Shown: positions 3 to 56,977 of the stretch, piece after piece
Layout: the number at the start of each line of letters is the position of its first letter
Position numbering within the stretch: position 1 is the first letter of the stretch
DNA from: Thermoplasmata archaeon
Lineage (GTDB): Archaea; Thermoplasmatota; Thermoplasmata; RBG-16-68-12; JAFNFQ01
Direction of reading: 5' to 3'
Length of the DNA stretch: 64,000 bases
NCBI GenBank assembly: GCA_041489255.1
Contig: JBGPQV010000001.1
Location: 224,001 to 288,000, forward strand
Translations under genes and position numbers: made by a program
Notes under the pieces: generated by a model
What the model was told of the DNA's origin: nothing
What the model saw: only the letters and a program-made list of their open reading frames with translations
The model's database searches: none

Positions 3-350
3 AGACAGGACATCGTCGCGAACGCGCAGGAGGGGCTCCTGAGGTCACTCCTCCCGATATTGGATGACTTCGACAAGGCTGTCGAGATCGCCGGGGAAGG
101 TGATTCCGGGCTGAGACTGCTGCATGCCAAGCTCCTGAAGATCCTGGAGGAGAGCGGCCTGGTTGAGATTCCCGCCAAGAGCCAGAAGTTCGACCCGTTC
201 ATCCACGACGCGGTCGAGTTCGTGAACGAGAAAGATATGGAGCACGGGACGATCAAGGAAGTCATCCGCAAGGGATATAGATGCAACATGAAGGTATTGA
301 GACCATCTCTTGTGATCGTTGTCAAGAACGAAGGTGAGAAGAATGCCTAA
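3..350 (+). CDS. grpE: Nucleotide exchange factor GrpE (5'-truncated by window edge)
   Basis: Frame is open from position 3 ([23 protein letters not shown]...FDPFIHDAV...KGY...LRPSLVIV); lies directly upstream of dnaK and overlaps its start. Confidence 0.93.
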
Positions 351-4453: not shown

Positions 4454-6682
4454 GTGACCGAAAAGGTCGTTCTCAAGGTTGCGGAGGCGCCACAGTCCGA
4501 CGTGGGACTTGGCAGGGCGCGAGTGGACACGAAGACCAGGATGGCCCTGGGACTCGATGTCGGTGAGATCGTCGAGATCATCGGCAAGAAAAGCACGTCC
4601 GCCAAGATCTTCAGGGTCATGCAGGAAGACGAAGGGAAGGGCATCATCAGGATAGACGGCTTGGTGAGGAGAAACGTCGGCTGCTCCATCGGTGACAGGG
4701 TCGAGGCGAAGAAGGCCGAGGTTCTGACGGCCGAGCGCGTCACGATTGCGCCGATAATCTCCGAGGGCCACAGGATCTCGTTCGGCCAGGGAATAGAGAA
4801 CTTCGCCAAGCGCGGGCTGCTGAAGAGGCCGCTCATGAAGGGGGACGTCGTCATAGTGCCCGGCATAGCGCTGATGGGCGGTGCACTGCCGTTCATGGTC
4901 GTGAAGACCACGCCTAAGGGCGTCGTCCAGATCAACGACGAGACAATCATCGAGATGAAGGAGGAACCCGTGAGGGAGGGGGAGGTGCTCACCACCGCCA
5001 TCACCTACGAGGACATAGGCGGGCTGAAGGAGGAGTTGCTCAAGGTCCGCGAGATGATCGAGCTGCCGCTGAAACACGCGGAGCTGTTCGAACGCCTCGG
5101 TATCAACCCGCCAAAGGGAGTCCTGCTCTACGGACCGCCGGGCACCGGCAAGACGCTGATCGCGAAGGCGGTAGCGAATGAGGCGGGTGCGAATTTCTAT
5201 TCCATACAGGGCCCGGAGATAATGAGCAAGTACTACGGGCAGAGCGAAGAGAGGCTCAGGGAGAAGTTCGACGAGGCGCAGAAGAACGCGCCGAGCGTGC
5301 TGTTCATCGACGAGCTGGACAGCATTGCCCCGAGGAGGGAAGAGGTCACGGGAGAGGTGGAGAGGCGGGTCGTCGCCCAACTGCTGACGCTCATGGACGG
5401 GCTGTCCGACCGCGGGCAGGTCATAGTCATCGCAGCGACCAACCGCGAGGAAGCAATCGACCCGGCTCTGAGGCGCGGGGGACGGTTCGACCGGGAAATC
5501 GAGATAGGCGTCCCGGACCGCATAGGCAGGAAGGAGATACTGCAGATCCATTCGCGAGGCATGCCGATAGAAGGCAACGAGGAGGACAGGGAGAACCTCC
5601 TCACAGAGCTGGCGAACGTCACCCACGGCTTCGTCGGGGCGGATATGGCCGCGCTGGCGCGGGAGGCGGCTATGAGGACGTTGCGGCGCTATCTCCCCGA
5701 GATAGACTTGGACAAGCCGATACCGTCCGAGATACTGGAAAAGATGCGGGTGACCCCGGGCGATTTCAAGGAAGCGCTGAAGGAGGTCGAGCCGAGCGCT
5801 ATGAGGGAGGTCCTCGTGGAGATACCGCACACCACCTGGGATGACGTCGGCGGTCTGGAGGACCTGAAAGCGAAGTTGAAAGAGGCGGTCGAGATGCCGC
5901 TCAAGGACCCCGAGTCGTTCAAGCGCATGGGCATAACCCCGCCGAGGGGTATACTGCTCTACGGCGCCCCGGGGACCGGCAAGACGCTGATCGCCAAGGC
6001 GGTCGCGACGGAATCGGAGTCGAACTTCATCAGCATCAAGGGTCCCGAGGTCATGAGCAAGTGGGTGGGGGAGAGCGAGAAGGCGGTGCGCATGATCTTC
6101 AAGAAGGCGAGGCAGGTGGCGCCCTGCATAGTCTTCCTCGACGAGATTGACGCGATAGCACACAGGCGCGGCGGGGGGGAAGGCGACTCGGGTGTCACGG
6201 AGCGGGTGGTCAACCAGCTGCTCACGTCCATGGACGGCTTGGAGAGCAGGGAGGGCGTGCTGGTGATCGCCGCCACGAACAGACCGGACATGGTGGATCC
6301 GGCGCTGCTGAGGGCGGGCCGGTTCGACAAGCTGATTCTGGTCCCTGTGCCCGACGAGAGGACCCGTCTGGAGATACTCAAGGTCCACACGAAGAGCATG
6401 CCTCTGGACGGCGACGTCTCGATCAGCGAGTTGGCCAAGGAGATTGAGGGCTACACCGGCGCAGACATCGAGGGGCTGTGCCGCGAGGCGGCCTTGTCCG
6501 CCCTGAGGGAGAACAGGAAGGCCAAGAAGGTCTCCATGAAGCACTTCGAGGAGGCCAAGAAGAGCGTGCACCCTTCGATGGACGAGGAGACGGCGAGGGT
6601 CTACGAGAGGATGGGGCAGGAGATGGAGAAAGGCATCTCCAAGAAGGAGCGCGAAGAGATCAGCATGGGGTACTATAGGTAA
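4454..6682 (+). CDS. cdc48: Cdc48/VAT family AAA+ ATPase
   Basis: N-domain plus two AAA modules ([18 protein letters not shown] Walker B, GRFD); C-terminal HbYX-like GYYR. Confidence 0.97.
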
Positions 6683-9454: not shown

Positions 9455-10792
9455 ATGGCTGATGACAGTCCAACAAACAGAGTGCTTGAGGCCGTTAAGA
9501 AGGAGAAGGTCAACTTCGTCCAGATGCAGTTCATGGATTTGCTGGGATTCGTCAAGACGGTCACAATCCCCACGACCAAGATCGAGAGTGCCATGGAGAA
9601 TGGCGTAGTTTTCGATGGCTCCTCTGTCACCGGCTACGCTGAAATAGAGGAGAGCGACATGCGCGTGCGGCCGGACCCCACGACGTTCAAAATCTATCCG
9701 TGGATATCCGGCGACCTCAAGACGGCCGCGATGGTCTGCAACGTGTACGACTCGAGCGGCAAGAGGTTCAGCGGCGACCCCCGGTACATCCTCGAACAGA
9801 CCATGAAGAAGGCGAGGGAACTGGGATACATCTGCTACACCGGTCCCGAGTACGAGTTCTTCCTCTTCAAGATGGACGGCGGGGGCCAGGTGACGAGCAT
9901 CCCCTGCGATTCGGGTCGATACTTCGAGCAGCTGCCCCTGGACAAGGGCGAGGTCGTGAGGAAGAAGACGATCCTGTACTTCAACGAGATGGGGTTCGAT
10001 GCGGAGGCAGGGCATCACGAGGTAGCGCCGGGCCAGCACGAGATAGACCTGCGGTACACCGATGCGTTATCCTCGGCGGACAGGGTGCTGACCCTGAAAC
10101 ACGCCATCAAGACGGTGGCGCTGGAGCAGGGTCTGCACGCGAGCTTCATGCCGAAGCCGATATTCGGGGTGAACGGCAGCGGGATGCACGTGCATCAGAG
10201 CCTCATGACGCCTGAGGGCGAGAACATATTCTACGAGCCTACGGCGAAGTGGGAGCTCAGCGACAAGTGCATGTGGTACATCGGGGGCCTGCTGATGTTC
10301 GCAAGGGAGAACTGTGCCGTGCTCGCCTCCTGGGTGAACAGTTACAAGCGACTGGTGCCCGGGTACGAGGCGCCGGTCTACATCAGCTGGGCGAACAAGA
10401 ACAGGTCGGCGCTGATACGAGTCCCGGCGGGCAGAGGGATGAGCACCCGCCTGGAGGTGAGGAATCCCGATCCCAGCGGCAACCCTTACCTGCAGTATGC
10501 GGTGATGCTCGCGGCGGGGTTGAGGGGGATGTACAAGCAGGTAGAGCCGCCGAGCCCGGTGGAGACCAACATCTACGCCCTCGGGGCTCTTGAAAGGAAG
10601 AAACTCTCCATAGGCAGCCTTCCCGCCGACTTGGAGGAGGCGCTGGACGAGCTGGAGAAGAGCGACCTGATGCGGGAGACGCTGGGGGCGCACGTCTGGA
10701 CCAACTACCTGTATCTCAAGAGGCAGGAGTGCGAGGAGTACAGGACGCAGGTGACGGACTGGGAGCTGAAGAAGTACCTGGCGGTCCTCTGA
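9455..10792 (+). CDS. glnA: Glutamine synthetase type I
   Basis: FDGSS, GPEYEFF, HHEVAPGQHE, FMPKP..GVNGSGMH, SYKRLVPGYEAP, NRSALIRVP. Confidence 0.97.
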   Translation: MADDSPTNRVLEAVKKEKVNFVQMQFMDLLGFVKTVTIPTTKIESAMENGVVFDGSSVTGYAEIEESDMRVRPDPTTFKIYPWISGDLKTAAMVCNVYDSSGKRFSGDPRYILEQTMKKARELGYICYTGPEYEFFLFKMDGGGQVTSIPCDSGRYFEQLPLDKGEVVRKKTILYFNEMGFDAEAGHHEVAPGQHEIDLRYTDALSSADRVLTLKHAIKTVALEQGLHASFMPKPIFGVNGSGMHVHQSLMTPEGENIFYEPTAKWELSDKCMWYIGGLLMFARENCAVLASWVNSYKRLVPGYEAPVYISWANKNRSALIRVPAGRGMSTRLEVRNPDPSGNPYLQYAVMLAAGLRGMYKQVEPPSPVETNIYALGALERKKLSIGSLPADLEEALDELEKSDLMRETLGAHVWTNYLYLKRQECEEYRTQVTDWELKKYLAVL

Positions 10793-43583: not shown

Positions 43584-44809
43584 ACCGCGCCATCGTGATT
43601 ACCATCAACATCTTAAGACAGATAAAAAACGATAGACGCACGGTAGGGATGATAGTCGTCACCCCAATCCTCGTGATGGTCCTCTTCGGCTACGCGTTCG
43701 CCGGGGAACCCCATGACCTGCAGTTGGCAATCGCAAATGAGGATGTCGGGAGTGCATCTTTTCCAACGCTTGAGGGACCTGTTGTCACCCTGCCGCTCAA
43801 TCTTGGCCGAAGCATGGCCGATTCCATAGACAGCGACACATTCGCAAAGACCAGCACTGATAGTCTGGAATCCGTCAGGCAAATGATCTCGGACGGACAC
43901 GCCTGGGGTGGGTTATACATTCCAGGCAACTTCACGCAGCACTTCATCACCAAAGGTTTCCAAATCACCAATCAGGCAACGATCATTTTCGGCGGAACCC
44001 TCTATCACCTGAACCTCACCCAAGTTCGGAGCATGCCGACTGATCAAGCACACATGGCGACCCTCGTAGACAACAGCAACACCCAGGTGGGCTCGCTCAT
44101 CCAGCGCAAGATGCAGGATGCGTTCAGCTCGATGATGGCGCAACTCCCCGTCAACCTCTCTTTCTCAGGCGTCATCCAGACGAGCTTCGTCTACGGTGCT
44201 AACGCGAAGTTCGTCGACTTCTTCGCGCCCGGGATTATGTCTTTCGTCATCACCATCATCACGATCATGCTCACAATCGTCTCCATAGTCCGCGAGAGGA
44301 CTAACGGAACCATGGAGAGAATCTTCGCGTCGCCCACACGTCCGTACGAGGTCGTCCTCGGGTATATGATCGCCTTCAGTCTCATAAGTCTCATCCAATC
44401 GTGTCTCCTCCTCGGTTCGGCTATCCTTCTGTTCAACATGACGATTCAGGGCAGCGTCCTGCTCGCCCTCGGATTCGTCGTTCTCTACGCCATAGGCGTG
44501 CAAGGCCTCGGCACCCTCCTCTCGACGGTGGCTCGCAACGAGTTCCAGGCAATCCAACTCGTCCCGCTGGTGTTCGTGCCTTTCATCCTCCTTGGCGGCA
44601 TTTTCTGGCCTGTCGAGGCGATGCCGACGTTCATCAGACCATTATCTTCAGTAATACCTCTCACTTACGCGGCCGAGGGGCTCAGGTCAATCGTGATAAG
44701 GGGGTGGGGACCTGCAGAGATCTGGAAAGACTTGGTCGCACTCAGCATCTTCGCCACGGTGATGATCCTAGCAGGTTTCGCGGTTACGAAAAAGAAAGCG
44801 AGAGGTTAG
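43580..44809 (+). CDS. ABC-2 transporter permease
   Basis: ATGA overlap; SIVRERTNGTMER, LGGIFWP..MP, PLTY...GLR. Confidence 0.92.
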   Translation: MNRAIVITINILRQIKNDRRTVGMIVVTPILVMVLFGYAFAGEPHDLQLAIANEDVGSASFPTLEGPVVTLPLNLGRSMADSIDSDTFAKTSTDSLESVRQMISDGHAWGGLYIPGNFTQHFITKGFQITNQATIIFGGTLYHLNLTQVRSMPTDQAHMATLVDNSNTQVGSLIQRKMQDAFSSMMAQLPVNLSFSGVIQTSFVYGANAKFVDFFAPGIMSFVITIITIMLTIVSIVRERTNGTMERIFASPTRPYEVVLGYMIAFSLISLIQSCLLLGSAILLFNMTIQGSVLLALGFVVLYAIGVQGLGTLLSTVARNEFQAIQLVPLVFVPFILLGGIFWPVEAMPTFIRPLSSVIPLTYAAEGLRSIVIRGWGPAEIWKDLVALSIFATVMILAGFAVTKKKARG

Positions 44810-44861
44810 ACGCCACAGCTCTGCAACTTCAAATAGCCCGGACGCGTGATTCATCACCGCC

Positions 44862-45689
44862 ATGCAACTGACACTACAATCCAGGGTGAAGCTCAACAAC
44901 GGCGTCGAGATGCCGATGCTGGGATTGGGCGTCTGGCAGATGGCGCAGGGTATCGAGACACAACGCGCCGTCAAGTCTGCTCTGGGCGTTGGCTATCGCC
45001 TCATCGACACCGCCAAGCTCTACGCGAACGAGAGAGACGTCGGCATCGCCGTCGGGGAGAGCGAGATTCTCCGCGAAGAGGTGTTCGTGACAACCAAGCT
45101 CTGGAACACGGACCACGGCTTCGAGCCTGCGATCAAGGCTTTCAACAGGAGCCTGCACGAACTCGGGTTTGACTATGTCGATCTCTACCTGATACATTGG
45201 CCTGTGGCGCCTCTGAGGGGAGACAGTTGGCGGGCTTTGGTGAGACTCCTGGAAGAGGGGAAGTGCCGGGCAATCGGGGTCAGCAACTACACCGTCGACC
45301 ATCTCCGGGGACTCTTGAGGGACTCCTCAGTAGTGCCGGCGGTCAACCAGGTCGAGTTCAGCCCATTCCTCTTTCAGGAGGAACTCATGGACTCCTGTCA
45401 AGATCACAACATACAGCTTGAGGCCTACAGCCCGTTGACGAAGGGAGCGAGACTAGGCGACCCGAAGCTGAGACCCTTCGCGGCAAAGTATCACAAGACC
45501 GCCGCCCAGATTCTCATCCGATGGGCGTTGCAGCACAACGTCGTCGTGATACCCAAGTCCAGCAGACCGGAAAGGATCCTGGAGAACGGTCAGGTGTTCG
45601 ACTTCGAGATCTCATCCGCCGACATGAAGATGCTCGATTCTCTCGGAGAGGATTATCGCACCGCCTGGGACCCCACGAACACCCGATAG
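44862..45689 (+). CDS. Aldo/keto reductase
   Basis: GLGVW, IDTAKLY, TKLWN, DLYLIHWP, IGVSN, YSPL, IPKS. Confidence 0.95.
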   Translation: MQLTLQSRVKLNNGVEMPMLGLGVWQMAQGIETQRAVKSALGVGYRLIDTAKLYANERDVGIAVGESEILREEVFVTTKLWNTDHGFEPAIKAFNRSLHELGFDYVDLYLIHWPVAPLRGDSWRALVRLLEEGKCRAIGVSNYTVDHLRGLLRDSSVVPAVNQVEFSPFLFQEELMDSCQDHNIQLEAYSPLTKGARLGDPKLRPFAAKYHKTAAQILIRWALQHNVVVIPKSSRPERILENGQVFDFEISSADMKMLDSLGEDYRTAWDPTNTR

Positions 45690-45734
45690 CGGGCCCGCGT
45701 GCATCGGCCCGCGTGTCGCTCGCGCCAACTGACC

Positions 45735-45911
45735 TCAGGTTCGTCTGTCCCCGCCCTGGCCCTTCTGCGCCTTGTACCGCGCCGAGTCGAGGTCGAGGTC
45801 CAGGTCCTCTTCCTTCGCCTTGCCCGGGCTGAATACCTTGCCCGCCTCGAACTCCAGCTTCTTGTCCTGCTTCTTCTTCTTGCGCGGCGCCTGCTCAACC
45901 TGCTGTTCCAT
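45735..45911 (-). CDS. Putative Pup/UBact-like protein modifier (58 aa, not in ORF track)
   Basis: MEQQVEQAPRKKKKQDKKLEFEAGKVFSPGKAKEEDLDLDLDSARYKAQKGQGGDRRT*; GGAGG RBS; start overlaps the PafA/Dop gene end by 17 nt; charged, likely disordered. Confidence 0.75.
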   Translation of the reverse strand: MEQQVEQAPRKKKKQDKKLEFEAGKVFSPGKAKEEDLDLDLDSARYKAQKGQGGDRRT

Positions 45912-47193
45912 GTATATCCTCCCATCTGTGAGCGTAGGGGTCGGGTAGGTCTATGCGGCGGCGGTCGCCGTCGCCGACCATCACAGTGGACCAATCGATG
46001 GACTCGATATTGAACCTGTCGCAGATTTCCCGCCTCAGCGCGGCCCTGGTGTCGCTTGGCGGCTCCTTGATCGCCTTGGCGATGTCGCCGTCCTTCAGCA
46101 GTCTATCCACGAGCCCTTTCGACTGCCTCTTGTAGAAGATGCCTCTCTCAGCTCCGACCTCCGAGTACTGCTTGCAGGCCATCATCTCGACATCGGGTCC
46201 GCTCTTGCTCTCCTTGGCCTCCTGGATGGCGAAGTACCTGTCCAGCCATTCGACCCGCCTGGCGAGTTCTTTCGATTTCCTGCCCTCGATGCCATCGAGG
46301 ACTTCCTCGAGGATTTTCAACGCGCGCTTCTCTCGATCATCCTCCACGATGTTCTCTATCTTCGCCAGGTAATATCTCTGGATCTCCACAGGCGAGACCT
46401 TCTTGCCGCTATTGAGGTGAACCTTCCAGGCTTCCGGGTTCGTCTTCTCGACGTTCTCCCACATGTCCTCGACCGGCGACTTGAGGCGGGGAGCGTCGCC
46501 GAGTTCGTCCATCTCCATGAGCTGCAGTATGGCGGTGGTGGTGAAGTGCCGCAGCAGGATCGCCACCTCGTTCATCAGCGCATCGCCGCAGATGACGTGC
46601 AGCCTGCGCCAGCTCGAGCGGTCCGAGTGTGGCTCGTCGCGCGTGTTGATGAGCCCGGTGTTGTGCATGGTCTCGCCGCTGACGACTGCGCTCGTCAAAT
46701 ATATCATCGGCGATAGGACATACTTCCCGTCGAGGATGTCTCCCGCCCCCGTGTAGATGAACCTGGTGCTGAAGTGCGGCACTAGCTCCTTCACGAACTT
46801 CTCAGGGAAGTCCACGGACCTGTCGACGATGTAGTTCTCATGGCTCCCGTAGCTGACTCCCTCGGGTGACGTGTTGTTCTTGAACGCCCAGATCCTCTCC
46901 CCGCTTGAGAGGTACTTCTCCTCCGTCACCCGCCTCAGCCAATCGATCACCTTCTCGCCCGCCTTCTCCCACAGGAGCATGTCGAATGGGTTGCTCACCT
47001 CGCAGGTGCTCAGCTCGAAGTGACCGACGTCGTAGTAGCAGCGAGAGCCGTTGGTGATGAACTCCCCCGCCAGCTGAAGGTCGCTCTCGCTCAACAGCTC
47101 GAGCGCGAGGGTATGAGGGTCGAACCCCTTGGAGGCAAGCTTCTTCGAGTACATCGTGTACTCGAGTTCTGTCCCCTGGATCCTCTTTCTCAT
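45895..47193 (-). CDS. PafA/Dop family (Pup ligase/deamidase) enzyme
   Basis: GTELEY, NGSRCYYDVGH.E, KNN....SYGSHENY, INTRDEPH, RRLHVICGD, PPSDTRA. Confidence 0.95.
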   Translation of the reverse strand: MRKRIQGTELEYTMYSKKLASKGFDPHTLALELLSESDLQLAGEFITNGSRCYYDVGHFELSTCEVSNPFDMLLWEKAGEKVIDWLRRVTEEKYLSSGERIWAFKNNTSPEGVSYGSHENYIVDRSVDFPEKFVKELVPHFSTRFIYTGAGDILDGKYVLSPMIYLTSAVVSGETMHNTGLINTRDEPHSDRSSWRRLHVICGDALMNEVAILLRHFTTTAILQLMEMDELGDAPRLKSPVEDMWENVEKTNPEAWKVHLNSGKKVSPVEIQRYYLAKIENIVEDDREKRALKILEEVLDGIEGRKSKELARRVEWLDRYFAIQEAKESKSGPDVEMMACKQYSEVGAERGIFYKRQSKGLVDRLLKDGDIAKAIKEPPSDTRAALRREICDRFNIESIDWSTVMVGDGDRRRIDLPDPYAHRWEDIHGTAG

Positions 47194-47195
47194 CC

Positions 47196-48752
47196 TTATC
47201 CTACCATCGGGTCTCCGCCGGCGCTCTTGAATATCTCCCTCTGCCTCTTCTCGTAGAGGTAGACATCGGTTATCGCGTGCTCCTTCGACTCTTCCTCAAT
47301 CGCCTGCTGGAAGTCGTTCAGGTTCAGCCCCTCCTTTTCCCGCTCGGCCTTCTTGAGGTTGAGAATCCTCTTGACGTAATTCTTCTTGGCGGTCTTCACG
47401 ACGGCGGCGATGATTGCTCCGGAGACTATGTCCTTCCTCTTGACGGTCTTGATCGCTTCCTTGGCGTCCGGATCGGTTTTCACCCTGACCCACTTGCTCT
47501 CTCCGTAGAACTCATCAAGCACTGCATTCCTCAGGTACCGGATCGCCTTCTCGTGGTCGCCTTGCTCCCTGACGATGCCCGCTTCGACCGGAAGATCGCC
47601 TGCCAAGTAGATTGAGAGGATCTCCTCGGCCATCTTCCTGCTTGGCCTGGGTATCTCGATTATCTCGTCGAACCGACCGGGCCTAAGGAGTGCCGGATCC
47701 AAGAGATCGGCCCTGTTGGTCGCGCCTATCACGAATACGTCGTGAAGCTCCAGCAGGCCGTCCATCTCGCTGAGTATCTGCGCGATTATGTTCTTGTGCA
47801 CACCTGAGGTGTCCATGTAGCCCCTCACGGTGAAGACCGCCTCGATCTCATCGAAGAAGACGATGCTTGGCCGTCTCTCGTGTGCTTGGCGGAATATCTC
47901 CTTGATGAGCCGCTCGCTTTCCCCCACCCACTTGCTCAGCACGTCGGCGATGCTGACGTTGAAGAATGTCATGTCGTTCTCGGTCGCGACGGCCTTCACC
48001 ATGAGGGTCTTCCCGCATCCAGGCGGACCGTGAAGCAGTATGCCCCGGGGCGCCTCCAGGTTGATCTTCTTGAACAGCTTCTGCTCCTTGAACGGGAGAA
48101 TCGTCACATCCCTGATCCTCTCGATAGCCTCCCCCAGTCCGCCAATCTGCGCATAGTGGACATTCGGCTTCTCACCCAGCAGCAGGTTCTTCACTTCAAG
48201 ATTCGGGAGGACCTCGATCAGCTCCATGGTCGGCGGGAGGACAGATATCTGGAACCCGGGCTTCAGCTTCCCGATGATCTCCTTCTCGGCGGAGACCAAC
48301 CTCTTCTCCATGTCGCCTTCGACAGTGATCACAAGCTTGCCTTCGAGGATGTCAGCGACCTTCGCAATCACTCCTTCATTTCTGGCGTTGCTGCTCTCGA
48401 CAATCGCGTATGTCTGCGGATGAACCCAGACGTACTGCCCTATGTTCAGCGTCGACTTGTCGACGAGGCCTGTGCTGACCTTCAGGAGCTCCATCGACCT
48501 CGCGACCACGACCTGGCTCGCGTCGAGATCCGGTCCTTCCTTCCTGACGACGTAGGCATATAGCAGAGGCGGCTGCTTGATCTTGTTGAATTTCTCCTCA
48601 TAGGCCTTGAGCCTATACTCCCTCTCATCCACCTCATAGCGGAAGGCCTGCAGATCCCTCTCGTACTGCCGCTTGAGTCGGTCGAGCTTCTCCTCGTACT
48701 CTTCCTTCATTTCGTCGAGCGATTCCTGATCCTTTTGCTTGGTTTCCGGCAT
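47196..48752 (-). CDS. arc: ARC/Mpa-type proteasomal AAA+ ATPase
   Basis: N-terminal coiled coil, QPP motif, two OB-like segments, GPPGCGKT, KWVGE, FFDE, DPALLRPGRFD, SGAII...V..AKK. Confidence 0.88.
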   Translation of the reverse strand: MPETKQKDQESLDEMKEEYEEKLDRLKRQYERDLQAFRYEVDEREYRLKAYEEKFNKIKQPPLLYAYVVRKEGPDLDASQVVVARSMELLKVSTGLVDKSTLNIGQYVWVHPQTYAIVESSNARNEGVIAKVADILEGKLVITVEGDMEKRLVSAEKEIIGKLKPGFQISVLPPTMELIEVLPNLEVKNLLLGEKPNVHYAQIGGLGEAIERIRDVTILPFKEQKLFKKINLEAPRGILLHGPPGCGKTLMVKAVATENDMTFFNVSIADVLSKWVGESERLIKEIFRQAHERRPSIVFFDEIEAVFTVRGYMDTSGVHKNIIAQILSEMDGLLELHDVFVIGATNRADLLDPALLRPGRFDEIIEIPRPSRKMAEEILSIYLAGDLPVEAGIVREQGDHEKAIRYLRNAVLDEFYGESKWVRVKTDPDAKEAIKTVKRKDIVSGAIIAAVVKTAKKNYVKRILNLKKAEREKEGLNLNDFQQAIEEESKEHAITDVYLYEKRQREIFKSAGGDPMVG

Positions 48753-48782
48753 CGGATGACCACCGCCGCGAAATATGTCAAG

Positions 48783-48840
48783 GGCGTCCTGGCGCTCAGA
48801 CTGCCATCTTCGTGCTGAAGATGGCCAAATCCAGAACGCC
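48783..48840 (-). promoter_or_regulatory. Long hairpin in the leader of the ARC operon
   Basis: Outer GGCGUUCUGG/CCAGGACGCC and inner GCCAUCUUC/GAAGAUGGC stems; TATA-like TTCATAA at 48868-48874. Confidence 0.6.
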
Positions 48841-48993
48841 TGGAACCTAATTATGTCTGAACTGGGGTTATGAACCTTGCGACGAGATTATGGGATTCAG
48901 TAATCTGGAGAGTGCAAGAAGAGTCACCTAATCAATGGAGTGTTGAAAATTATAAACAATGACGAATTTAATCACGGTCAGACGGCTCAGGAA

Positions 48994-50145
48994 TCATGAC
49001 AGCCCGTGATACTTGAACGCTTTCCTCTTGACGCCGTCGACGACCTTCTTCACCGCACTCGACACAGCGCCGCCATCCTGTGTTTCCTCGGAATCCCTCA
49101 GCGTCCCGCCTTTCGGGGCGATCGCGTATGTGATCTTGCAGTACTCCATCCATTCGATCGGCAGGTCGTTTGCCAGCTCCTTCCCGAGCATCCTGGCGAA
49201 GAAGAGAGCCCATATCCTCGGGCAGATCATGATATCATAACCGCCGCCAGTCACCGCCACCCATCGCCCGCCGCCATATCTCCTCGAAATCTCGTCGAAG
49301 TCCCTGCCGATCTCCTCGTAAGCCCGCGTGGTCAGGTTCAGGTGGGCCAGCGGGTCGGCGAAGTGCGCGTCAGCGCCGAGCTGGGTGAACAACACCTCTG
49401 GCTTGAACGCCTCTGCCAAAGGGATGACGATTTCTTTGAAGGCATGCAGATAGCTCGCGTCTCCCGAGTATGGGGGCAACGGGACGTTCACGGTGTAGCC
49501 CTCCCCGTCACCCGTGCCGATCTCATCGATGTCGCCTGTCCCTGGGAATAAATAGTGACCGTCCTCGTGGATTGAGACTTTCAGGACTCGGGGATCGTCG
49601 ATGAATATCGATTGCACACCGTCTGCATGATGAACATCTATGTCGACGTACATCACCCTGCTCAGGCCATATTTTCCGAGCAACCGCTTTATGCCAACGG
49701 CAATATCATTCAGGAGACAAAACCCGGACGCTCTCGCAGGCATGGCATGGTGGAACCCGCCACCTAGGTTCATGGCCTTTTCCGTCTCCCCTTTCGCGAC
49801 CGCATCGCAGGCGAGCATGGTCCCGCCGACATGGAGGCTTGCCGCCTCGAACATCCCTGCGAACACCGGATTGTCCGAGATGCCCAGACCGTGTGAGAAC
49901 GATTGGCCGTCCGGGTGCTCGCTCAAGTGCTCGAGAACCTCTAGGTAGCCTCTGTCGTGCACGGCGATCAGGTCTTCGTATTCGGCGAGGCTGGGTTTCA
50001 TTTCGACCGCGCCCTTCGGCCCTATGAGCCCGTAATCCTGCATGAGCATCTTCGTGAGGAGGAGCCGCTCCTCCCTCATTGCATGCCCTTCCCCGAAATT
50101 GTATTTTAGGTACTTGTCATCATAGACAAGGACAGGGCTGGCCAT
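48994..50145 (-). CDS. Zn-dependent lysine deacetylase (AcuC/HDAC family)
   Basis: GGFHHA, SGFC..ND, DIDVHHADG, FPGTG, QLGAD, GGGY. Confidence 0.93.
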   Translation of the reverse strand: MASPVLVYDDKYLKYNFGEGHAMREERLLLTKMLMQDYGLIGPKGAVEMKPSLAEYEDLIAVHDRGYLEVLEHLSEHPDGQSFSHGLGISDNPVFAGMFEAASLHVGGTMLACDAVAKGETEKAMNLGGGFHHAMPARASGFCLLNDIAVGIKRLLGKYGLSRVMYVDIDVHHADGVQSIFIDDPRVLKVSIHEDGHYLFPGTGDIDEIGTGDGEGYTVNVPLPPYSGDASYLHAFKEIVIPLAEAFKPEVLFTQLGADAHFADPLAHLNLTTRAYEEIGRDFDEISRRYGGGRWVAVTGGGYDIMICPRIWALFFARMLGKELANDLPIEWMEYCKITYAIAPKGGTLRDSEETQDGGAVSSAVKKVVDGVKRKAFKYHGLS

Positions 50146-50184
50146 CGACGCGCCATGTCCCCCAACATCTAAAGCCTTAGCCCC

Positions 50185-50928
50185 TCAGATGAGCCATCCA
50201 CCCGTTACGTTGATGACGTCACCGGTGACGAAACCCGCCTCATCGGAGACGAGGAAAGCCACGGCGGCGGCGATGTCCCACGAAGTCCCCGGCCTGCCGA
50301 CCGAGGTCTCTTTGTCTTTGACCTCGAGTGCCTCCTTGACGGTCCTCTCCTTGTCCGCGACGACGCCGGGAGCGACCGCGTTGACCGTGATCCCGCTCCT
50401 CCCGACCTCTCGGGCGAGCGACTTGGTGAACGCGACGACTCCCGCCTTCGCGGCATAGAACGCGGACATGCCGGACGCCCCGTGCGCCCTGTATGCGCCC
50501 GCGGCGGCGAGATTCACTATCCTTCCCCACTTTTGCTTCTTCATGATCGGCAACACCTGCCTGGAGCACAGGAACGCGGCGGTGACGCTCGTGTCCAAGA
50601 CCCTCCGCCATTCACCGAGCGACATCGCCTCCACATCCTTTGTAATCCAATCGCCAACGTTGTTGACCAAGATGTCGAGTCGGCCAAAGTGAGTATGAAC
50701 CTTGTCCACGAGCTCGGCGACCTCCACCTCTCTCGTCACGTCTGCCTTGATGGCCAGAGCCTTGCGGCCCTTCGATTCGATTTCCTTGACAACCTCCAAC
50801 GCCTCTGCCTGACTGTGCAGATAGTTGACGGCGATGTCCGTCCCTTTCTCTGCTAGGGTCAGGGCTATGGCCCTTCCTATGCCTTTCGCTGCCCCCGTGA
50901 CCAGCGCCACGCGTACTGGGAGCGTCAC
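50185..50928 (-). CDS. SDR family oxidoreductase (FabG-like)
   Basis: TGAAKGIG, LVNNVG, YAAK, NAVAPG. Confidence 0.92.
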   Translation of the reverse strand: MTLPVRVALVTGAAKGIGRAIALTLAEKGTDIAVNYLHSQAEALEVVKEIESKGRKALAIKADVTREVEVAELVDKVHTHFGRLDILVNNVGDWITKDVEAMSLGEWRRVLDTSVTAAFLCSRQVLPIMKKQKWGRIVNLAAAGAYRAHGASGMSAFYAAKAGVVAFTKSLAREVGRSGITVNAVAPGVVADKERTVKEALEVKDKETSVGRPGTSWDIAAAVAFLVSDEAGFVTGDVINVTGGWLI

Positions 50929-50989
50929 GGCTGGATGATGGACGGAGTCGGTATTAAGGCTGTTCGAAGACCGGCCTGAAAGGAGGGCC

Positions 50990-53900
50990 TTAGATTTCGT
51001 CTTCCTCCTCGGTCTCCGCCTCTTCGATCTCCACCTTCTTCTCCGCTCTCTTCTCTTCCTTGGGCATCTGTTTCGGCTGCTGCTTCTCCGGCTGCAACTC
51101 CTCCTCTTCCTCGATTTCGCCCAAGTCCTCCTGAGGACCCTGGAGAGCGCGAATCTTGCGGCTTATCGCGAAGTACATCCCGATGAGACCGACGAACAGC
51201 ATCACGATCAGCAACACCATCCCCATCATCAGCACGTTGCCCAGGCCGTCCAGGTCTGACTTGAGCGTCCTGATGTCGCCCGACGTCTGGTTGAGCGCGT
51301 CGAGCCTGCCCTGGATCGTGGTCAGCTGATTGTTGACATTGGTGATATCCTGACTCTGCTGGTTGATCGTGTCATTCATGTCTGCGATCTGGTTGTCCAG
51401 GTTATCGATTTGGTTGTTGAGGTCATTAATCATGCCGAGCAGCAACGTGATTTGATTCTGCAAGCCGGCGATATCAGGCGCGATGTAGGTCACGTCTCGC
51501 GTCTGCTGGTTCGTGTTGCCGGCCTGGTCGGTCGCCGTGATATAAATCGTATTGACTCCGTCAACCAAGAGGGCCACGATTGTATCGAAGCCTCCTGTCG
51601 AGTCCACCATAGCCATCTGTCCGTTGACTGTGATCGTTGCGCTGGGCTCGGTCGTTCCCCTGACCTCCACCGATGGGACTGTCGTCTGGTACAACGGCGC
51701 GGGCATCGCAATCGCCAGTGTCGGCGCGACCGTGTCGAGTGTGATGGTCTTGAGCACCGCCGCCATGTTCCCTGCGACGTCTGTCGCATTGACCCAGATG
51801 TTCTTCCCTCCGTCGCTTCCCAGGCCCACCGTCGTCGTGAAGCTGCCGTCGCCCGCCACCGCAACCGGTGCTGAGTTGACGGCCACAGTGGCAGAAGGCT
51901 CGGTCTGACCGGAGACAGTTAAGGCCGGATTGTTGGTGTACGCTCCTGTTGGAGACGTGATCGTCACGGCTGGCGATACCGTGTCCACGGTGACGCCGAT
52001 GATCTCGACATGGGCGTTACTAGCGGGATCTGTCGCCACTACCCGGATTGAATTGCTGCCTTCTTTCAATGCAATAGTGACCGCAAAATCACCGACATTG
52101 TTCACCGCAGCGTTGATGCCCTCAATCACGACCGACGCCCCTCGTTCGGTCGTGCCCGCCACCACCACCGTCCTCTCTTTGATGTAGGAACCTGCAGTGG
52201 GGGAGGTGACCGTGAGTGCTGGAGGTTGGGTGTCGAGTTCGATGTCCTTATGGAGCAAGGCGGTATTGCCGACCAAGTCTGTCGCCTCTATCTGAATGGT
52301 GTTCGGCCCCTCGACAAGGTTCGTCGAACTGCTGAACGCACCATTCGTGGTCGCTGTCGGCACTCCATTGATCAGCACCGTGGCGATGGTCGACTCCGTG
52401 TAACCGACCACGTTCACCGCAGGCTGATTCGTGATGCTGACCGCAGGAGACGTGAGGACTATGATGGGTGCCGAATTGTCCACACCGAACGTGAACATTA
52501 GTGAAGCGAGGTTCGGCGTGGTGGCGAGGTCGTACATCTGGATGTCCACCGTATGCTGTCCCTCGCTCAGCAGGAAGGTCAGGTTCCACCACAATTCTCC
52601 GGCCACGATTCTCGCAGACGAGGTCACATCGCGCCCGTCCAAGGTCAGGAGTATGCTGTTCATGTCGACGCCCGAGTAGAACGCTCCCCGAACGTCATCG
52701 AAGGAGACGTCGATTATCGGGACGTCGGATGTCCTGTAGTCGATTCCTGCCGAGGGTGAGTTCAGGGTTATCGTAGGCGGTGTCGTATCGCGCGCCATGA
52801 GCAGCACCGGCATCTCGATGGTCGTCGGCGCCCCCATTGGCCCGATGAAGATGACGCCATAGTAATCACCTTCGACATCGGGGATATCGTAGTCGATATC
52901 GAAAGTGTAAGGCGTGTTGGCGACGATTGGACCAGAGGGCACGTTCGCCGGATCCAGATCCAGTCCCGCTCTCAGGTCGACCGTCAGGTCGAAAGTCGCA
53001 CCCGGCATCGGCACGGTGAATCCGTGCACCTCGATTCTGTACGTCCCGTCGTCTGGCAGCGTCAGCTTCACCCTCTCGTTGGCTGTCGGCGAGGTCGAGG
53101 AACCGACGGGCACTTCGCCGCCGCCCGGCAGCTCGTAATACACGTAAAGGTCGAGATCGATGGGGAACGCCGAAGTCAATGTGATGTCCATCAGTCCCGC
53201 GTGAACAGAGTCGACAAGGAAGCTGACCCGTTCATCCTGGGTGATTGGATAGACATACGTTGTCGGCTCGGAGACCCCGTAGGCCCTGACCTCCATCCCG
53301 TCGGGCATATCCATCGTCGACATGAAGTCGAACGTCTTCACGCCCGAGCTCTGCGACAGCTGTTCGGTCCACGGGAATGGATTGACGTTCACGAAACCCG
53401 TCGCTCCCGAGAACACTTCCGAAGGCCCTTCGCCCGCGTAGAGGACGTTGTGCAGGGCAATCTCGTGCAGACCATTCGCGGCAGGCCCTGAGACCCATTC
53501 CTCCGGACCGCCTGTCGCCGTATTGAATAACCAAGTGCCCGCTCCTATGTTCATGTTCGGGCTGCCGCCGACTTGGGAAAGTGCGTATGGTCCGAAAAGG
53601 GAAGGCATCGCATTCGAGAAGTCGTCCGGGGTAGGACCGAATAATAGCGTGTCTATGTCGGTCGGATAGTTGTTCCATTTCGTGTGTATGAGGAAACGGG
53701 TGCCGCCCGTGATCGGCGTGCTGTCCGGCACGTCCATGAAATAGAACCGCCAATCCCCCGCTTCCGGTCGCCATGACCAGTCCTGGCCGCCATACATGCG
53801 GCCATTGTCATAGTAGCTCGTGTTGCTGGTGTCCTCCTGGAAGGTTATGTCCTGACTGTTCCCGGCGACGTTTATCACGATCGGTATGACCGTCTCGTTC

Positions 53901-56788
53901 GAACCGGTATCCTTGAGGATCACCATCGCGCTGTAGACGCCCACCGCGGCCGTTGGCGGCACACTCACCGTCACTCTGAGCGTCTGCGTCGCTCCGGCAC
54001 CGAGCGTCACGGTCGCCTTGTCTTCCGTGATCCACGCCGAATCAGCAAGCTCATAGAACTCCAGGACGACGTGAACCCTCGTGCTCGGAATCGCCGGATC
54101 CCGGTATCTGTGGATAACGCCGAACAGTAGAGCATCGTCGACCCTCGTGAACGGATCGTGCACGAATGCGTTCTGGACGTTCGAAAATCCGTATGCATAG
54201 GTGAACCTCATGTATTCTACCTGCCCGCCAACGTTGTCGAGCTCGCCCGAGTTCACCACACCGTTGCCGTTCAAATCGTCCCAATAAAGGCCGTTGCCAT
54301 TGAGGTCCTTCCAATCGTAGAACAGCGCCCTGTAAGCGCTGTTCATGGTGTAATCGTACTCTGGGTCGAACGATGCGAAGTCGGTGTACGCAATCCCCCG
54401 TACGAATTTGGTGGTCGGATAAGCCGAGAGCATCGCGCTGACGTTCCACAGGTAGTCGGGCCTATTGCTGCTGGGACTGCTTTCATCCGAGTTGTTCGAC
54501 CAGATGTCAAACGTCCGTTCTCCCGCCTTCCTGAGGACGGCATCCGAGATCGACCACTGCTGAGCCGAACCCCCTCGGTTCGTGAGCTGGAAATCTTTCC
54601 ATGTCGTGTCTCCTGCGCTCATCACATGCGCGAAAGAGGGGTAGTCAGTGCCTCTGTAGCCGCCAGGCGTCCAAGATGATGGTGAAGCACGCACCCCATA
54701 GAGTCCATTGGCAAGCATCGTCGAACGTTCCGCGTTCGTGAGCCCGGCACCCATGACGAGCGGATCATAGTTGATGTTATCCGCGCCGTTCATCAGGAAC
54801 TCCTTGACCATGGTGTTCGTGGGATACACGGACGCGCCTTGTTCGTAGGCGTCATAGATCAACGCAACAATGCCGGCAGTCGCGGGTGAGGACAAGCTCG
54901 TTCCTCCCCAGATGCTCCAGGAATTCGTGCCGTTGCTCTGGCCTGCGGATACGGTATTGATGGCGTTGTCGCCCGACGCCCATGCGCCCACAGTCACCAC
55001 GTCGGGATCGACGTTGCCCAGAGAACTCGGTCCCCGGTTGGACCACGGCTGGACATCGCCGAAGGTCCACATAGGCCCGTTCTCCCAGGTCGTCTTCGCC
55101 CCACTGTAGTAGCTGGTCGATGCACCCACCGATATCACCGATTTACTGCCGCCCGGCGGAGTCACAGTCCCGAACCCATAGCCGCCATTTCCCGTCGATG
55201 CAACGTAGGTCGTGCCGTCGTAGTACGAAGTCAGCAAGTCGATGAAGCGCGACTCGTAATCCCAGCCGTCATTGTCGACATTAGAGGTACCGTAGCTTGA
55301 GCTGCTTACCATCGCCTCGTCGCCAGTCCCCGGGACTCCGTCGTATCCCTCAGCGGCGAACGGGTAGATGTCCGTCCAGAAACCTCCGAAGTAGATGTCA
55401 CCAACGGCGACTATCCTGGCGTCGGGCGCGAAGCCCTGCACCCTTCCTGTCACATTCTGCGCCACCACAGCGGAGGAACACATGGTGCCGTGGTCTCCTC
55501 CCGCTGCATATGCATCACCAATCATGAATGCAGTCAAATTCCCGTTGCCAGGTATCGTATTAATCAGTCCGTAACGGTCCGCCACAACGTCCGAGTACGG
55601 AATGGGATTGACGCCGTTCGCGATGAAATAGATTAGACCGCCAGAAACGTCGGGCATTCCGTCGCCCCAATCCCAGGAGGATTCGTCATAGCCGCCGGTG
55701 CTCGCGTCCCTGTAGTCAGCGTAGGAGATTGGGCTGAAGATGTCCACGGGTTTGTCGTTAAGGAAGTTGTCATCGTCGTTGAGGTCGACGTAGATTGTAT
55801 CGTAGACGAATGGAACCGCGCTGTCTGTCAGAAGGACGCCTGGGCTGTGGCTGCCGAACCTCGCCGCCAGCGTCGGCGCCGGGTGTACGCCGAGATGGTA
55901 CCAACCGCTCGCGCTCGGGACGCTGGTGACGTTGTAGTTCCTATCATTGAAGAGTGGCAGGAGACCGTTGACATCAGCCGTGGCATTGAAACTCGTGTCG
56001 ACGTACCACGAGGGGGCCGCAGGGTATGAAGCCCCGCCGAAATAGAGGTAAACGTACATCGAGAACGGATCGAACGCAATCGGCCAGAGATAGTAGGGCG
56101 AGGAGGTGTTCTCCTCAATGGCCCACGTACCCAACAGGTCAGGATTGGCGAAGTCGACGCCCGAATCCAAGATTGCGACCCTGACGTCAGAGCCCGTGAA
56201 GCCTCTCGCCCAGGCGTCCGTCACATGGTGGCCCTGGGCCGCTCTTATTGTGTTCACGCCGGGTTCGGCCGCACTGTCTGGACTCTCCTGACGTCCATTC
56301 TCCGATTCCGGATTGAGTATCTCCAGTGGCTGCGGGACCACGAACAACGATACCCCACCGACGCTGTCGAGATAGGCTATCTTGGCTGCGATGACTGCAG
56401 GCATGTCGACGATCACGGGTCGGAGGCCCGTGCTTTTTGAGGGCGCCTTGCCAACCGGGGTATCCACGCCCATCGCCCTCAGCGTTCTGCCGAGTGCCGC
56501 AGGGTCCGTTGTGTAGACTGTGACCCTGACCACCTGCTCCGGATTTTGCATGATCATGTCCTTGAGGCTCACGGAGATCTTGTTCAAGTATGACGTGTCA
56601 GGATAGAGGCCGCTTAGGCTGGTGAACGGCGACACCTGATTCTTCTCGCTCTGGCTTGCCGTCGCCGTGGCGGTGACGGTTCTTGATGCCGAGACCCGTG
56701 GCACCGAGACCAAGACCGCGAGCGACGATATCAAGACCAACGCTGCGACGACGATTGCCCCACTTCTTCCACCGACCGCTGTCTTCAT
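50990..56788 (-). CDS. Giant membrane-anchored S8 (subtilisin/pyrolysin-like) protease
   Basis: Signal peptide, ILDSGVD, HGT, GTSLSSP triad; PPC and Ig-like repeats, coiled coil, C-terminal TM and acidic tail; GGAGGT RBS. Confidence 0.92.
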   Translation of the reverse strand: MKTAVGGRSGAIVVAALVLISSLAVLVSVPRVSASRTVTATATASQSEKNQVSPFTSLSGLYPDTSYLNKISVSLKDMIMQNPEQVVRVTVYTTDPAALGRTLRAMGVDTPVGKAPSKSTGLRPVIVDMPAVIAAKIAYLDSVGGVSLFVVPQPLEILNPESENGRQESPDSAAEPGVNTIRAAQGHHVTDAWARGFTGSDVRVAILDSGVDFANPDLLGTWAIEENTSSPYYLWPIAFDPFSMYVYLYFGGASYPAAPSWYVDTSFNATADVNGLLPLFNDRNYNVTSVPSASGWYHLGVHPAPTLAARFGSHSPGVLLTDSAVPFVYDTIYVDLNDDDNFLNDKPVDIFSPISYADYRDASTGGYDESSWDWGDGMPDVSGGLIYFIANGVNPIPYSDVVADRYGLINTIPGNGNLTAFMIGDAYAAGGDHGTMCSSAVVAQNVTGRVQGFAPDARIVAVGDIYFGGFWTDIYPFAAEGYDGVPGTGDEAMVSSSSYGTSNVDNDGWDYESRFIDLLTSYYDGTTYVASTGNGGYGFGTVTPPGGSKSVISVGASTSYYSGAKTTWENGPMWTFGDVQPWSNRGPSSLGNVDPDVVTVGAWASGDNAINTVSAGQSNGTNSWSIWGGTSLSSPATAGIVALIYDAYEQGASVYPTNTMVKEFLMNGADNINYDPLVMGAGLTNAERSTMLANGLYGVRASPSSWTPGGYRGTDYPSFAHVMSAGDTTWKDFQLTNRGGSAQQWSISDAVLRKAGERTFDIWSNNSDESSPSSNRPDYLWNVSAMLSAYPTTKFVRGIAYTDFASFDPEYDYTMNSAYRALFYDWKDLNGNGLYWDDLNGNGVVNSGELDNVGGQVEYMRFTYAYGFSNVQNAFVHDPFTRVDDALLFGVIHRYRDPAIPSTRVHVVLEFYELADSAWITEDKATVTLGAGATQTLRVTVSVPPTAAVGVYSAMVILKDTGSNETVIPIVINVAGNSQDITFQEDTSNTSYYDNGRMYGGQDWSWRPEAGDWRFYFMDVPDSTPITGGTRFLIHTKWNNYPTDIDTLLFGPTPDDFSNAMPSLFGPYALSQVGGSPNMNIGAGTWLFNTATGGPEEWVSGPAANGLHEIALHNVLYAGEGPSEVFSGATGFVNVNPFPWTEQLSQSSGVKTFDFMSTMDMPDGMEVRAYGVSEPTTYVYPITQDERVSFLVDSVHAGLMDITLTSAFPIDLDLYVYYELPGGGEVPVGSSTSPTANERVKLTLPDDGTYRIEVHGFTVPMPGATFDLTVDLRAGLDLDPANVPSGPIVANTPYTFDIDYDIPDVEGDYYGVIFIGPMGAPTTIEMPVLLMARDTTPPTITLNSPSAGIDYRTSDVPIIDVSFDDVRGAFYSGVDMNSILLTLDGRDVTSSARIVAGELWWNLTFLLSEGQHTVDIQMYDLATTPNLASLMFTFGVDNSAPIIVLTSPAVSITNQPAVNVVGYTESTIATVLINGVPTATTNGAFSSSTNLVEGPNTIQIEATDLVGNTALLHKDIELDTQPPALTVTSPTAGSYIKERTVVVAGTTERGASVVIEGINAAVNNVGDFAVTIALKEGSNSIRVVATDPASNAHVEIIGVTVDTVSPAVTITSPTGAYTNNPALTVSGQTEPSATVAVNSAPVAVAGDGSFTTTVGLGSDGGKNIWVNATDVAGNMAAVLKTITLDTVAPTLAIAMPAPLYQTTVPSVEVRGTTEPSATITVNGQMAMVDSTGGFDTIVALLVDGVNTIYITATDQAGNTNQQTRDVTYIAPDIAGLQNQITLLLGMINDLNNQIDNLDNQIADMNDTINQQSQDITNVNNQLTTIQGRLDALNQTSGDIRTLKSDLDGLGNVLMMGMVLLIVMLFVGLIGMYFAISRKIRALQGPQEDLGEIEEEEELQPEKQQPKQMPKEEKRAEKKVEIEEAETEEEDEI

Positions 56789-56977
56789 TCCCTTGACCTC
56801 CTTTGATAAGACAGAGCAACACAGTTGCTCAGCGAAATTCGATATTCCCCGCATGCTGCGTGCACCGGGATGAGGGGCGCAACATCGAGCGGCGTAATAA
56901 AAGTTGGTGCACCACATCCCGTTCGAAGGGAGGCGGCAAGGCGAGGTTTAATGAATGCGCATGCCCTCCTCCGCTTC

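Follow-up and report, generated by a model that had tools for sequence, protein, structure and literature searches.

A candidate archaeal counterpart of the arc-dop-pup locus, with one Dop/PafA-family enzyme and a small protein of a new family

The window described here, the whole stretch of 64,000 nucleotides that was analysed (bases 224001-288000 of contig 1), comes from the 2.74 Mb genome of a Thermoplasmata archaeon, assembled in 41 contigs with 96.5% completeness and 2.7% contamination. Its minus strand carries an operon of three genes, which encode in order an ATPase like the bacterial ARC/Mpa proteins, an enzyme of the Dop/PafA (Pup_ligase) family, and a small charged protein. This order copies that of the bacterial arc-dop-pup locus, as an original prediction made from the sequence alone had proposed. 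The features of the operon, in window positions, are as follows.

47196..48752, minus strand: ARC/Mpa-like AAA+ ATPase, 518 residues, with an N-terminal coiled coil, an OB region, one AAA module and the C-terminus DPMVG.
45895..47193, minus strand: Dop/PafA-family (Pup_ligase, glutamine-synthetase fold) enzyme, 432 residues, without the Dop-loop, single copy.
45735..45911, minus strand: charged small protein of a new family, 58 residues, with a Lys-rich N-terminus, a LEFEAGKVF box, an acidic DLDLDLDSARY stretch, and K50-G51-Q52-G53-G54-D55-R56 followed by a 2-residue tail.
45756..45758, minus strand: codon (CAG) of Gln52, the candidate attachment or deamidation site, at the conserved Gln/Glu position of the small-protein family.
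45918..45923, minus strand: Shine-Dalgarno-like GGGAGG, situated inside the enzyme gene at its 3' end and ending 7 nt ahead of the small gene's ATG.
48753..48993, minus strand: intergenic A+T-rich, TATA-like stretches 5' of the ATPase gene, read from the sequence as a probable promoter of the operon.

The coordinates match exactly the three coupled minus-strand genes of the original prediction. In the list of open reading frames, a gap of 2 nt separates the ATPase and enzyme genes, and the enzyme and small-protein genes overlap by 17 nt. The separate ribosome-binding site claimed for the 58-residue frame is also present (GGGAGG, read at 45923-45918), and a GGAGG-like sequence stands at the equivalent position in related loci. 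The guanine-plus-cytosine (GC) content of the locus is 0.58, within the window range of 0.54-0.63, and thus there is no composition break. In addition, contigs from other sediment metagenome runs bridge both junctions: 44010-47057 (21 differences) and 45004-46560 on the downstream side, and 46615-51536 (116 differences) on the upstream side. A chimeric contig, against which the original prediction had warned, is not what these contigs indicate, and the three-gene operon is confirmed as real. A metatranscriptome run also yields short contigs that fall on the ATPase and enzyme genes, among them 47130-47334 (3 differences) and 47307-47461 (1 difference); these are not counted as expression, because DNA carry-over is possible.

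The predicted membership of the enzyme in the PafA/Dop family holds firmly. The protein matches Pfam Pup_ligase (PF03136) with 289 bits against a cut-off of 25, its residues 12-404 aligning with model positions 43-440 of 441. Both NCBIfam equivalog cut-offs are missed, with 250.2 bits for PafA (TIGR03686, cut-off 551.3) and 246.5 bits for Dop (TIGR03688, cut-off 492.3). The motifs cited in the original prediction lie at residues 116 (GSHENY), 183 (NTRDEPH) and 196 (RRLHVICGD). In an alignment of 37 archaeal, 10 Dop and 11 PafA rows, residues G7, E9, E11, D55, H58, E60, H118, E119, R185, D186, E187, H189, R196, R197, H199 and D204 are invariant. The GhExE nucleotide-binding motif, the catalytic Asp, and all other residues common to Dop and PafA are kept in the archaeal enzyme.

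The features by which Dop and PafA differ from one another do not place the archaeal enzyme in either group. The columns of the Dop-loop, about 40 residues, are gaps in all archaeal rows. At 34 columns that discriminate Dop from PafA, the archaeal enzyme shows the PafA state in 23, the Dop state in 2, and neither in 9; 15 of the 23 are gaps, because the Dop-loop and the C-terminal extension are missing, and with gap columns set aside, 8 residue columns are in the PafA state and 2 in the Dop state. Mean identity is 32.8% between archaeal and Dop sequences, 33.2% between archaeal and PafA sequences, and 40.7% between Dop and PafA. An unrooted maximum-likelihood tree, built from the 58 sequences that remained after 103 had been thinned by similarity within groups, resolves three groups, with support by the Shimodaira-Hasegawa-like approximate likelihood ratio test (SH-aLRT) of 100 for the archaeal, 94 for the PafA and 98 for the Dop group, and with a long archaeal stem. 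One row, assigned to Dop by a length rule, is placed within PafA. Three reading frames without the start motif and those without the C-terminal part were left out, and the sampling excludes the single-copy enzymes of planctomycetes and the UBact-linked enzymes. By this tree, which answers the call for a phylogeny made with the original prediction, the archaeal enzyme is a third clade outside both the Dop and the PafA clades and separate from all sampled bacterial sequences.

The ATPase is, by sequence comparison, closer to ARC/Mpa than to PAN, in keeping with its original assignment. Its best NCBIfam model is pup_AAA (TIGR03689), with 349.6 bits over residues 42-492, below the cut-off of 504.75; the PAN model gives 267.7 bits. 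Alignment with Mpa structures runs from the coiled coil to past the single AAA module (residues 42-466, 226-231 bits), and alignment with ARC proteins of bacterial loci fetched for comparison covers approximately residues 27-492 (200-250 bits), compared with 169 bits for the PAN of the host. Pfam detects AAA (139 bits) and Prot_ATP_ID_OB_C (24.4 bits, cut-off 23). Of the two OB-like segments predicted, the second is thus found by Pfam, while the first has no Pfam match at E up to 1 and is placed by the alignment with Mpa. The predicted QPP motif is present within KQPP.

The C-terminus of the ATPase sets it apart from bacterial ARCs and from other ATPases of the host. DPMVG ends all 23 archaeal ARC-like reading frames with a complete C-terminus except L105, whereas GQYL is the ending of most ARCs in the fetched bacterial loci. 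In the host, PAN terminates in VMYA and the Cdc48 gene of the window, one of two, in GYYR, both with a penultimate Tyr. Since the ATPase lacks this Tyr, docking on the 20S proteasome through it is unsupported, and the original suggestion that the module feeds the native 20S proteasome has no backing from the sequence. A database protein of 690 residues (P0202) contains both PF03136 and PF00004, and may be either a fused gene call or a true fusion of ATPase and enzyme.

The 58-residue reading frame is a real gene under coding constraint. In all 12 related loci (one cut by the end of the fetched stretch), it follows immediately after the enzyme gene, so that its conservation beside homologous enzymes, on which the original prediction had depended, is established. 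When its 40 core codons are compared with those of 23 loci, 288 changed codons are synonymous and 225 nonsynonymous. A word-based search retrieved 103 homologues, which either lack a name or are called 'hypothetical' and contain no Pfam domain, and a profile search of 1.84 billion representative proteins gave 105 matches, all archaeal-type and none longer than 164 residues. The small protein itself has no Pfam or NCBIfam family match at E up to 1, and its best score in the ESM Atlas, 0.78, is under the level that the tool treats as meaningful.

Members of the family share a Lys/Arg-rich N-terminus (187 of 199), a LEFEAGKVF-like box, an acidic stretch running to A-R-[F/Y], and the motif [K/H]-G-[Q/E]-[G/A]-G-x-R. 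At the Q/E position, 138 of the 199 members carry Gln and 57 carry Glu, with Asn in two and Pro and Gly in one each. Arg follows at +4 in 198 of 199, preceded by a residue of the class [D/T/N/S], and K50, G51, G53, G54, D55 and R56 around Q52 are invariant in alignment A1. The tail past the Q/E position ranges from 6 to 82 residues (median 6), and 14 tails have at least two Cys. A reading of the small protein as a ribosomally synthesised and post-translationally modified peptide with a double-glycine leader was ruled out, as 139 of the 199 tails have no more than 9 residues.

Further genes of this kind, or close to it, occur elsewhere. In seven relatives (G015, G022, G026, G033, G036, G037 and G038; loci L115-L123), extra paralogues of the small protein are unlinked to the enzyme gene and have long tails after the motif, several of them with Pro-rich (PP.VP-like) or Cys-rich (CxxC-like) stretches; G038 has five copies. 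One enzyme may serve several tags. The host genome itself contains a 67-residue frame (L104:1489-1692, plus strand, equivalent to approximately 150605-150808 of G000:C3) that the small-protein profile matches weakly (E 2.9e-4, over model positions 15-49). FE.G..F and DL.FD.D...ARF are present in this frame, but the K-G-[Q/E]-G-G motif is missing, and the frame stands just after a gene read from the sequence as an electron-transfer-flavoprotein alpha subunit. In a genus whose small gene is unlinked, a gene for an AMP-binding, adenylate-forming enzyme (PF00501, 243-255 bits) begins right after the stop codon of the small gene (L125:1678-3162, L128:1681-3162).

Enzyme and small protein travel together. 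Among 41 sampled relatives of the host order, Pup_ligase is present in 24, from 5 of 7 families, and the small protein is encoded in all 24 of these and in 1 of the 17 enzyme-negative genomes (one that is 83% complete); because related genomes are not independent, the counts describe a pattern and are no test. A search of related Thermoplasmatota had been called for with the original prediction. Sampling across the class gives 35 genomes with Pup_ligase out of 301, all 35 within the host order, and none was found in 251 sampled genomes from the other orders of the class. A phylum-wide sample yields 18 of 401 genomes, 17 of them beyond the class. The ATPase gene is directly upstream of the enzyme gene in every locus of the host-order type that reaches far enough, but adjoins it in only 2 of 10 fetched loci from the other part of the phylum. 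The small gene is adjacent to the enzyme gene in 14 of 17 archaeal-type loci from a species collection and in 7 of 10 loci from another class; in non-adjacent cases, the small protein is encoded elsewhere in all 5 genomes checked. In a divergent subgroup of archaeal enzymes (L036, L038 and L039; 48-50% identity), no ATPase gene and no small gene stands beside the enzyme gene.

The host is archaeal, as predicted, and the locus has neither proteasome genes nor a second enzyme. Its genome, at the completeness given above, holds a single Pup_ligase gene, together with PAN (582.8 bits, cut-off 500), two Cdc48-type genes, two ThiF-family genes, and two proteasome-subunit genes (PF00227) that lie on contigs other than that of the module. 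Close homologues of the enzyme are found in records titled Thermoplasmata archaeon, Methanobacteriota archaeon, and Euryarchaeota archaeon RBG_16_68_12, which points to the RBG-16-68-12 lineage, named 'Ca. Yaplasmales' in PMC9239135.

In PMC7947786 and PMC3511204, pupylation is viewed as bacterial, with an actinobacterial origin and sporadic transfer to other bacteria. The phyla with homologues are listed in PMC7947786 without any mention of 'archaea', and the paper on the host order contains no occurrence of proteasome, Pup, PafA or ubiquitin (PMC9239135). Full-text searches of the literature gave no description of archaeal Dop/PafA, Pup or UBact, though supplementary files may list such genes. 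In public annotation, the enzyme appears in archaeal metagenome-assembled genomes as 'proteasome accessory factor PafA2 family protein', and thus the presence of the gene is already in databases. The small protein is unnamed and the system appears to be undescribed; the caution attached to the original prediction, that such an operon might already have been reported, has so far turned up no earlier account.

Among the closest known systems is the bacterial Pup-proteasome system of Actinomycetota (mpa/arc - dop - pup - prcB - prcA - pafA), which fetched loci show to be present also in Myxococcota, Poribacteria and Spirochaetota. Bacterial loci fetched for comparison have the order Dop-Pup-PrcB-PrcA-PafA, and this order has been called rigidly conserved (PMC3511204). 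Both systems have the same order of ATPase, Dop/PafA-family enzyme and small charged protein, the same coiled-coil/OB/AAA+ build, the same enzyme fold and catalytic residues, and an alternation of Q and E at the candidate reactive residue (138:57 in the archaeal family, 35:19 at the Pup terminus in the fetched loci). However, the archaeal module has one enzyme rather than two, placed outside the Dop and PafA clades and without the Dop-loop; its locus has no proteasome genes; its small protein has no detectable homology with Pup and an internal Q/E; its ATPase has no GQYL; and its host is an archaeon already equipped with PAN, two Cdc48 genes and a 20S proteasome.

Three other bacterial arrangements come near to it. 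In some actinobacteria, the pupylation locus lacks proteasomal subunits (PMC3511204). These loci resemble the archaeal one in having an ARC ATPase tagging module without proteasome genes, and by this analogy the archaeal module suggests remodelling or regulation rather than obligatory degradation. Unlike it, they keep the two separate enzymes, Dop and PafA, as well as a canonical Pup with the C-terminus G[E/Q]. Some Planctomycetes have a single-copy Dop/PafA homologue with 29-31% identity to Dop/PafA and a four-helix membrane insertion, and the neighbouring Pup ends in G[E/Q] (PMC7947786, PMC2588565). The likeness lies in one enzyme per genome, near-equal distance from Dop and PafA (33% for the archaeal enzyme), and no linkage to proteasome genes. 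No hydrophobic segment is present in the archaeal enzyme (highest Kyte-Doolittle mean over 19 residues, 1.18), a difference from the planctomycete homologue as published. The UBact system of Gram-negative bacteria, said to have been described by Lehmann et al. in 2017, reportedly also pairs a Pup-like small protein of a different family with Dop/PafA homologues and an Mpa-like ATPase; it would be set apart by its reported terminal Gln/Glu, two enzymes, and proteasome subunits.

Two systems of other chemistry share single features with the module. SAMPs, the known archaeal small-protein tags of lysine, are beta-grasp proteins adenylated at a C-terminal Gly-Gly by the E1-like UbaA. Transglutaminases are Cys enzymes that work independently of ATP and form an epsilon-(gamma-glutamyl)lysine bond from an internal Gln. 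The SAMP/Urm1 system is thus alike as an archaeal lysine tag, and the transglutaminases are alike in the bond from an internal Gln donor that is proposed below, but neither uses a glutamine-synthetase-fold enzyme.

These comparisons lead to a proposal that we judge to be evenly poised between right and wrong, namely, that the locus is an archaeal counterpart of arc-dop-pup, a single-enzyme, Pup-like system for tagging lysines. It is the simplest account of the data, in which the locus is a conserved copy of arc-dop-pup, the enzyme has the intact fold of an ATP-dependent carboxylate-amine ligase, the pairing with a Lys-rich, disordered protein is strict, and that protein has a single fixed Q/E. 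The Dop/PafA-family enzyme would bind the small disordered protein and, with ATP, activate the gamma-carboxyl of the conserved Gln/Glu (Gln52 in K-G-Q-G-G-D-R). The Gln form would either be deamidated beforehand or be turned directly into an acyl-phosphate. The enzyme would then join the activated residue to epsilon-amino groups of lysines on target proteins, and the coiled-coil/OB/AAA+ ATPase encoded upstream would recognise the tag and unfold or remodel the tagged protein. That one enzyme can perform both steps follows from work with an engineered Dop variant, which by itself takes PupQ and ligates it (PMC7947786). As the Gln/Glu is never C-terminal, either an internal residue would be accepted within a Gly-rich flexible loop, or the variable tail would be trimmed first. 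The internal Gln used by transglutaminases indicates that such a residue can be a donor.

A fuller version of this proposal is held more tentatively, as something possible on which we would not rely. It envisages a third prokaryotic small-protein conjugation system, in which a single enzyme outside Dop and PafA would attach an internal Gln/Glu of a new, disordered protein family to lysines, several paralogous tags that differ in their tails would be used in some genomes, and an ARC-type unfoldase would read the tags without the usual mode of docking on the 20S proteasome.

Several points weigh against the tagging proposal. Action on an internal residue is not known to us for any Dop or PafA, and the Q/E is C-terminal in 0 of the 199 motif-bearing family members. 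The ATPase ends in neither HbYX (hydrophobic residue, Tyr, any residue) nor GQYL, and the unlinked, long-tailed paralogues are unexplained. Comparison with Pup itself is also negative. An hhalign comparison of the archaeal alignment with 18 bacterial Pups gives a probability of 1.9%, and the Pfam Pup model (PF05639), which scores a control Pup at 1.3e-19, has no match at E up to 10 in any of three archaeal family members. A canonical Pup is present in 54 of 63 fetched bacterial loci, ending in GGQ (35) or GGE (19), and all Pups are said to end in G[E/Q] (PMC2588565); this C-terminus is absent from 199 of 199 archaeal family members. What Pup and the small protein have in common is their size, their charge, an acidic stretch prone to form a helix, and an aromatic residue followed by K-G-[Q/E], as seen when the Pup endings FVRAYVQKGGE (L049) and FVRAYVQKGGQ (L067) are set against SARYKAQKGQGGDRRT of the window protein. 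By these comparisons, the small protein is a new family with no detectable Pup relationship, and the idea that the small frame is itself a Pup falls.

The remaining points against tagging belong to the enzyme, and they are also the ones that recommend the main rival, in which no conjugation occurs. The enzyme would instead be a Dop-like amidase whose only action is to deamidate the conserved Gln or to cleave another gamma-glutamyl amide, and the small protein would be a non-covalent adaptor or regulator of the ATPase with a Gln-to-Glu switch. The enzyme gene stands in the dop position, and the protein scores higher against solved structures of Dop, a hydrolase (192 and 177 bits), than against PafA (140 bits). 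Its alpha-loop region is among the columns that fit neither group and is not PafA-like, and the conformation of this loop decides between ligase and hydrolase activity (PMC7947786). An internal Gln/Glu suits deamidation of a side chain as well as it does ligation, and in the other part of the phylum the pair of enzyme and small protein is usually without an adjacent ATPase. Against this, 57 of 199 family members already carry Glu, and therefore deamidation cannot be the general function. The missing Dop-loop and the excess of residue columns in the PafA state (8 to 2) also speak against a plain Dop, and a Lys-rich small protein strictly paired with the fold of an ATP-dependent carboxylate-amine ligase fits ligation better. 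On balance, the amidase-only explanation is considered unlikely.

A far less probable alternative makes the small protein a precursor that is cut after Gly-Gly, as with ubiquitin or SAMPs, and conjugated through its new C-terminus by the E1-like (ThiF-family) enzymes of the host, with another role for the Dop/PafA-family enzyme. The conserved G-G followed by tails of variable length, some of them Cys-rich, does recall ubiquitin precursor fusions, and two ThiF-family genes are at hand in the genome. However, the residues past G-G ([D/T/N/S]-R) are conserved too, up to the nearly universal Arg at +4 (198 of 199); a beta-grasp fold is not expected in a charged, low-complexity protein of 58 residues; and the tight linkage is with the Dop/PafA-family gene rather than with the ThiF genes.

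An assembly or binning artefact, in which a fragment of a bacterial pupylation locus was misjoined to an archaeal contig, could draw on the fact that Pup_ligase genes are otherwise known from bacteria and on a close homologue (L039) in a record titled 'Proteobacteria bacterium', but it is already refuted by the position of the window inside a contig reaching at least base 288,000, the even GC content and bridging sediment contigs, the recurrence of the module in 5 of 7 families, the separate enzyme clade, and the S8e gene of the L039 genome. Ribosomal protein S8e is archaeal, matching only the 4 archaeal genomes among 14 control genomes, so that the 'Proteobacteria' label is probably wrong.

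If the tagging proposal is true, chemistry of the pupylation type was not invented by bacteria alone, and the module represents a one-enzyme form of the pathway. As a conserved module, it would extend protein tagging by glutamine-synthetase-fold enzymes to archaea that already have PAN, Cdc48, the 20S proteasome and E1-like enzymes, and its presence in sediment archaea points to an unstudied archaeal way of marking proteins. It would provide a natural one-enzyme system for asking how PafA and Dop came to divide ligase and hydrolase activities, and may indicate that the C-terminal position of the reactive Glu is dispensable. It also gives a family name to about 200 small proteins now labelled 'hypothetical'. 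The tagging idea lends itself to a direct test, since lysines that carry the tag would keep a characteristic branched remnant of six residues after digestion with trypsin.

The gene upstream of the operon is a conserved neighbour.

48994..50145, minus strand: histone-deacetylase-family gene (lysine deacylase or amidohydrolase), PF00850 with 299.7 bits, 241 nt from the ATPase gene.

Of the 11 archaeal loci that extend far enough on this side, 8 have a gene of this family upstream of the ATPase gene on the same strand, a count in which the window and L023 are near-identical. The PF00850 family hydrolyses N-acyl-lysine-type amides in general, which makes the deacetylase a speculative candidate for removal of the tag; its functional link with the module is one that we infer. 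In PADLOC, the ATPase has generic AAA matches and the enzyme, small protein and deacetylase have none, and thus no link to a defence system emerges.

Other neighbours vary between loci. Directly 3' of the small gene, a free-standing LAGLIDADG endonuclease-like frame (PF00961, 42 bits) is present in six loci (L033:1344-2387, L025, L026, L028, L029 and L030); the window has no such frame there, and an aldo/keto reductase gene on the opposite strand follows the small gene. In some loci, a pair of M16 (insulinase-type) peptidase genes lies downstream (L025:7009-8475, L024:6389-8845), a possible candidate for trimming of the tail. Farther out in the window, 50990-56917 (minus strand) encodes 1975 residues with a signal-like N-terminus, subtilase-like motifs seen by eye, many repeated domains, and a C-terminal coiled coil and hydrophobic segment; this is probably a giant secreted or surface protease. 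The window also includes genes for DnaK (319-2187, plus strand, 888.8 bits), the Cdc48-family ATPase that ends in GYYR (4454-6682, plus strand, 1055 bits), and a type I glutamine synthetase (9455-10792, plus strand, 508 bits). Protein-quality-control genes are thus found in the wider vicinity of the module, at least 39 kb from it.

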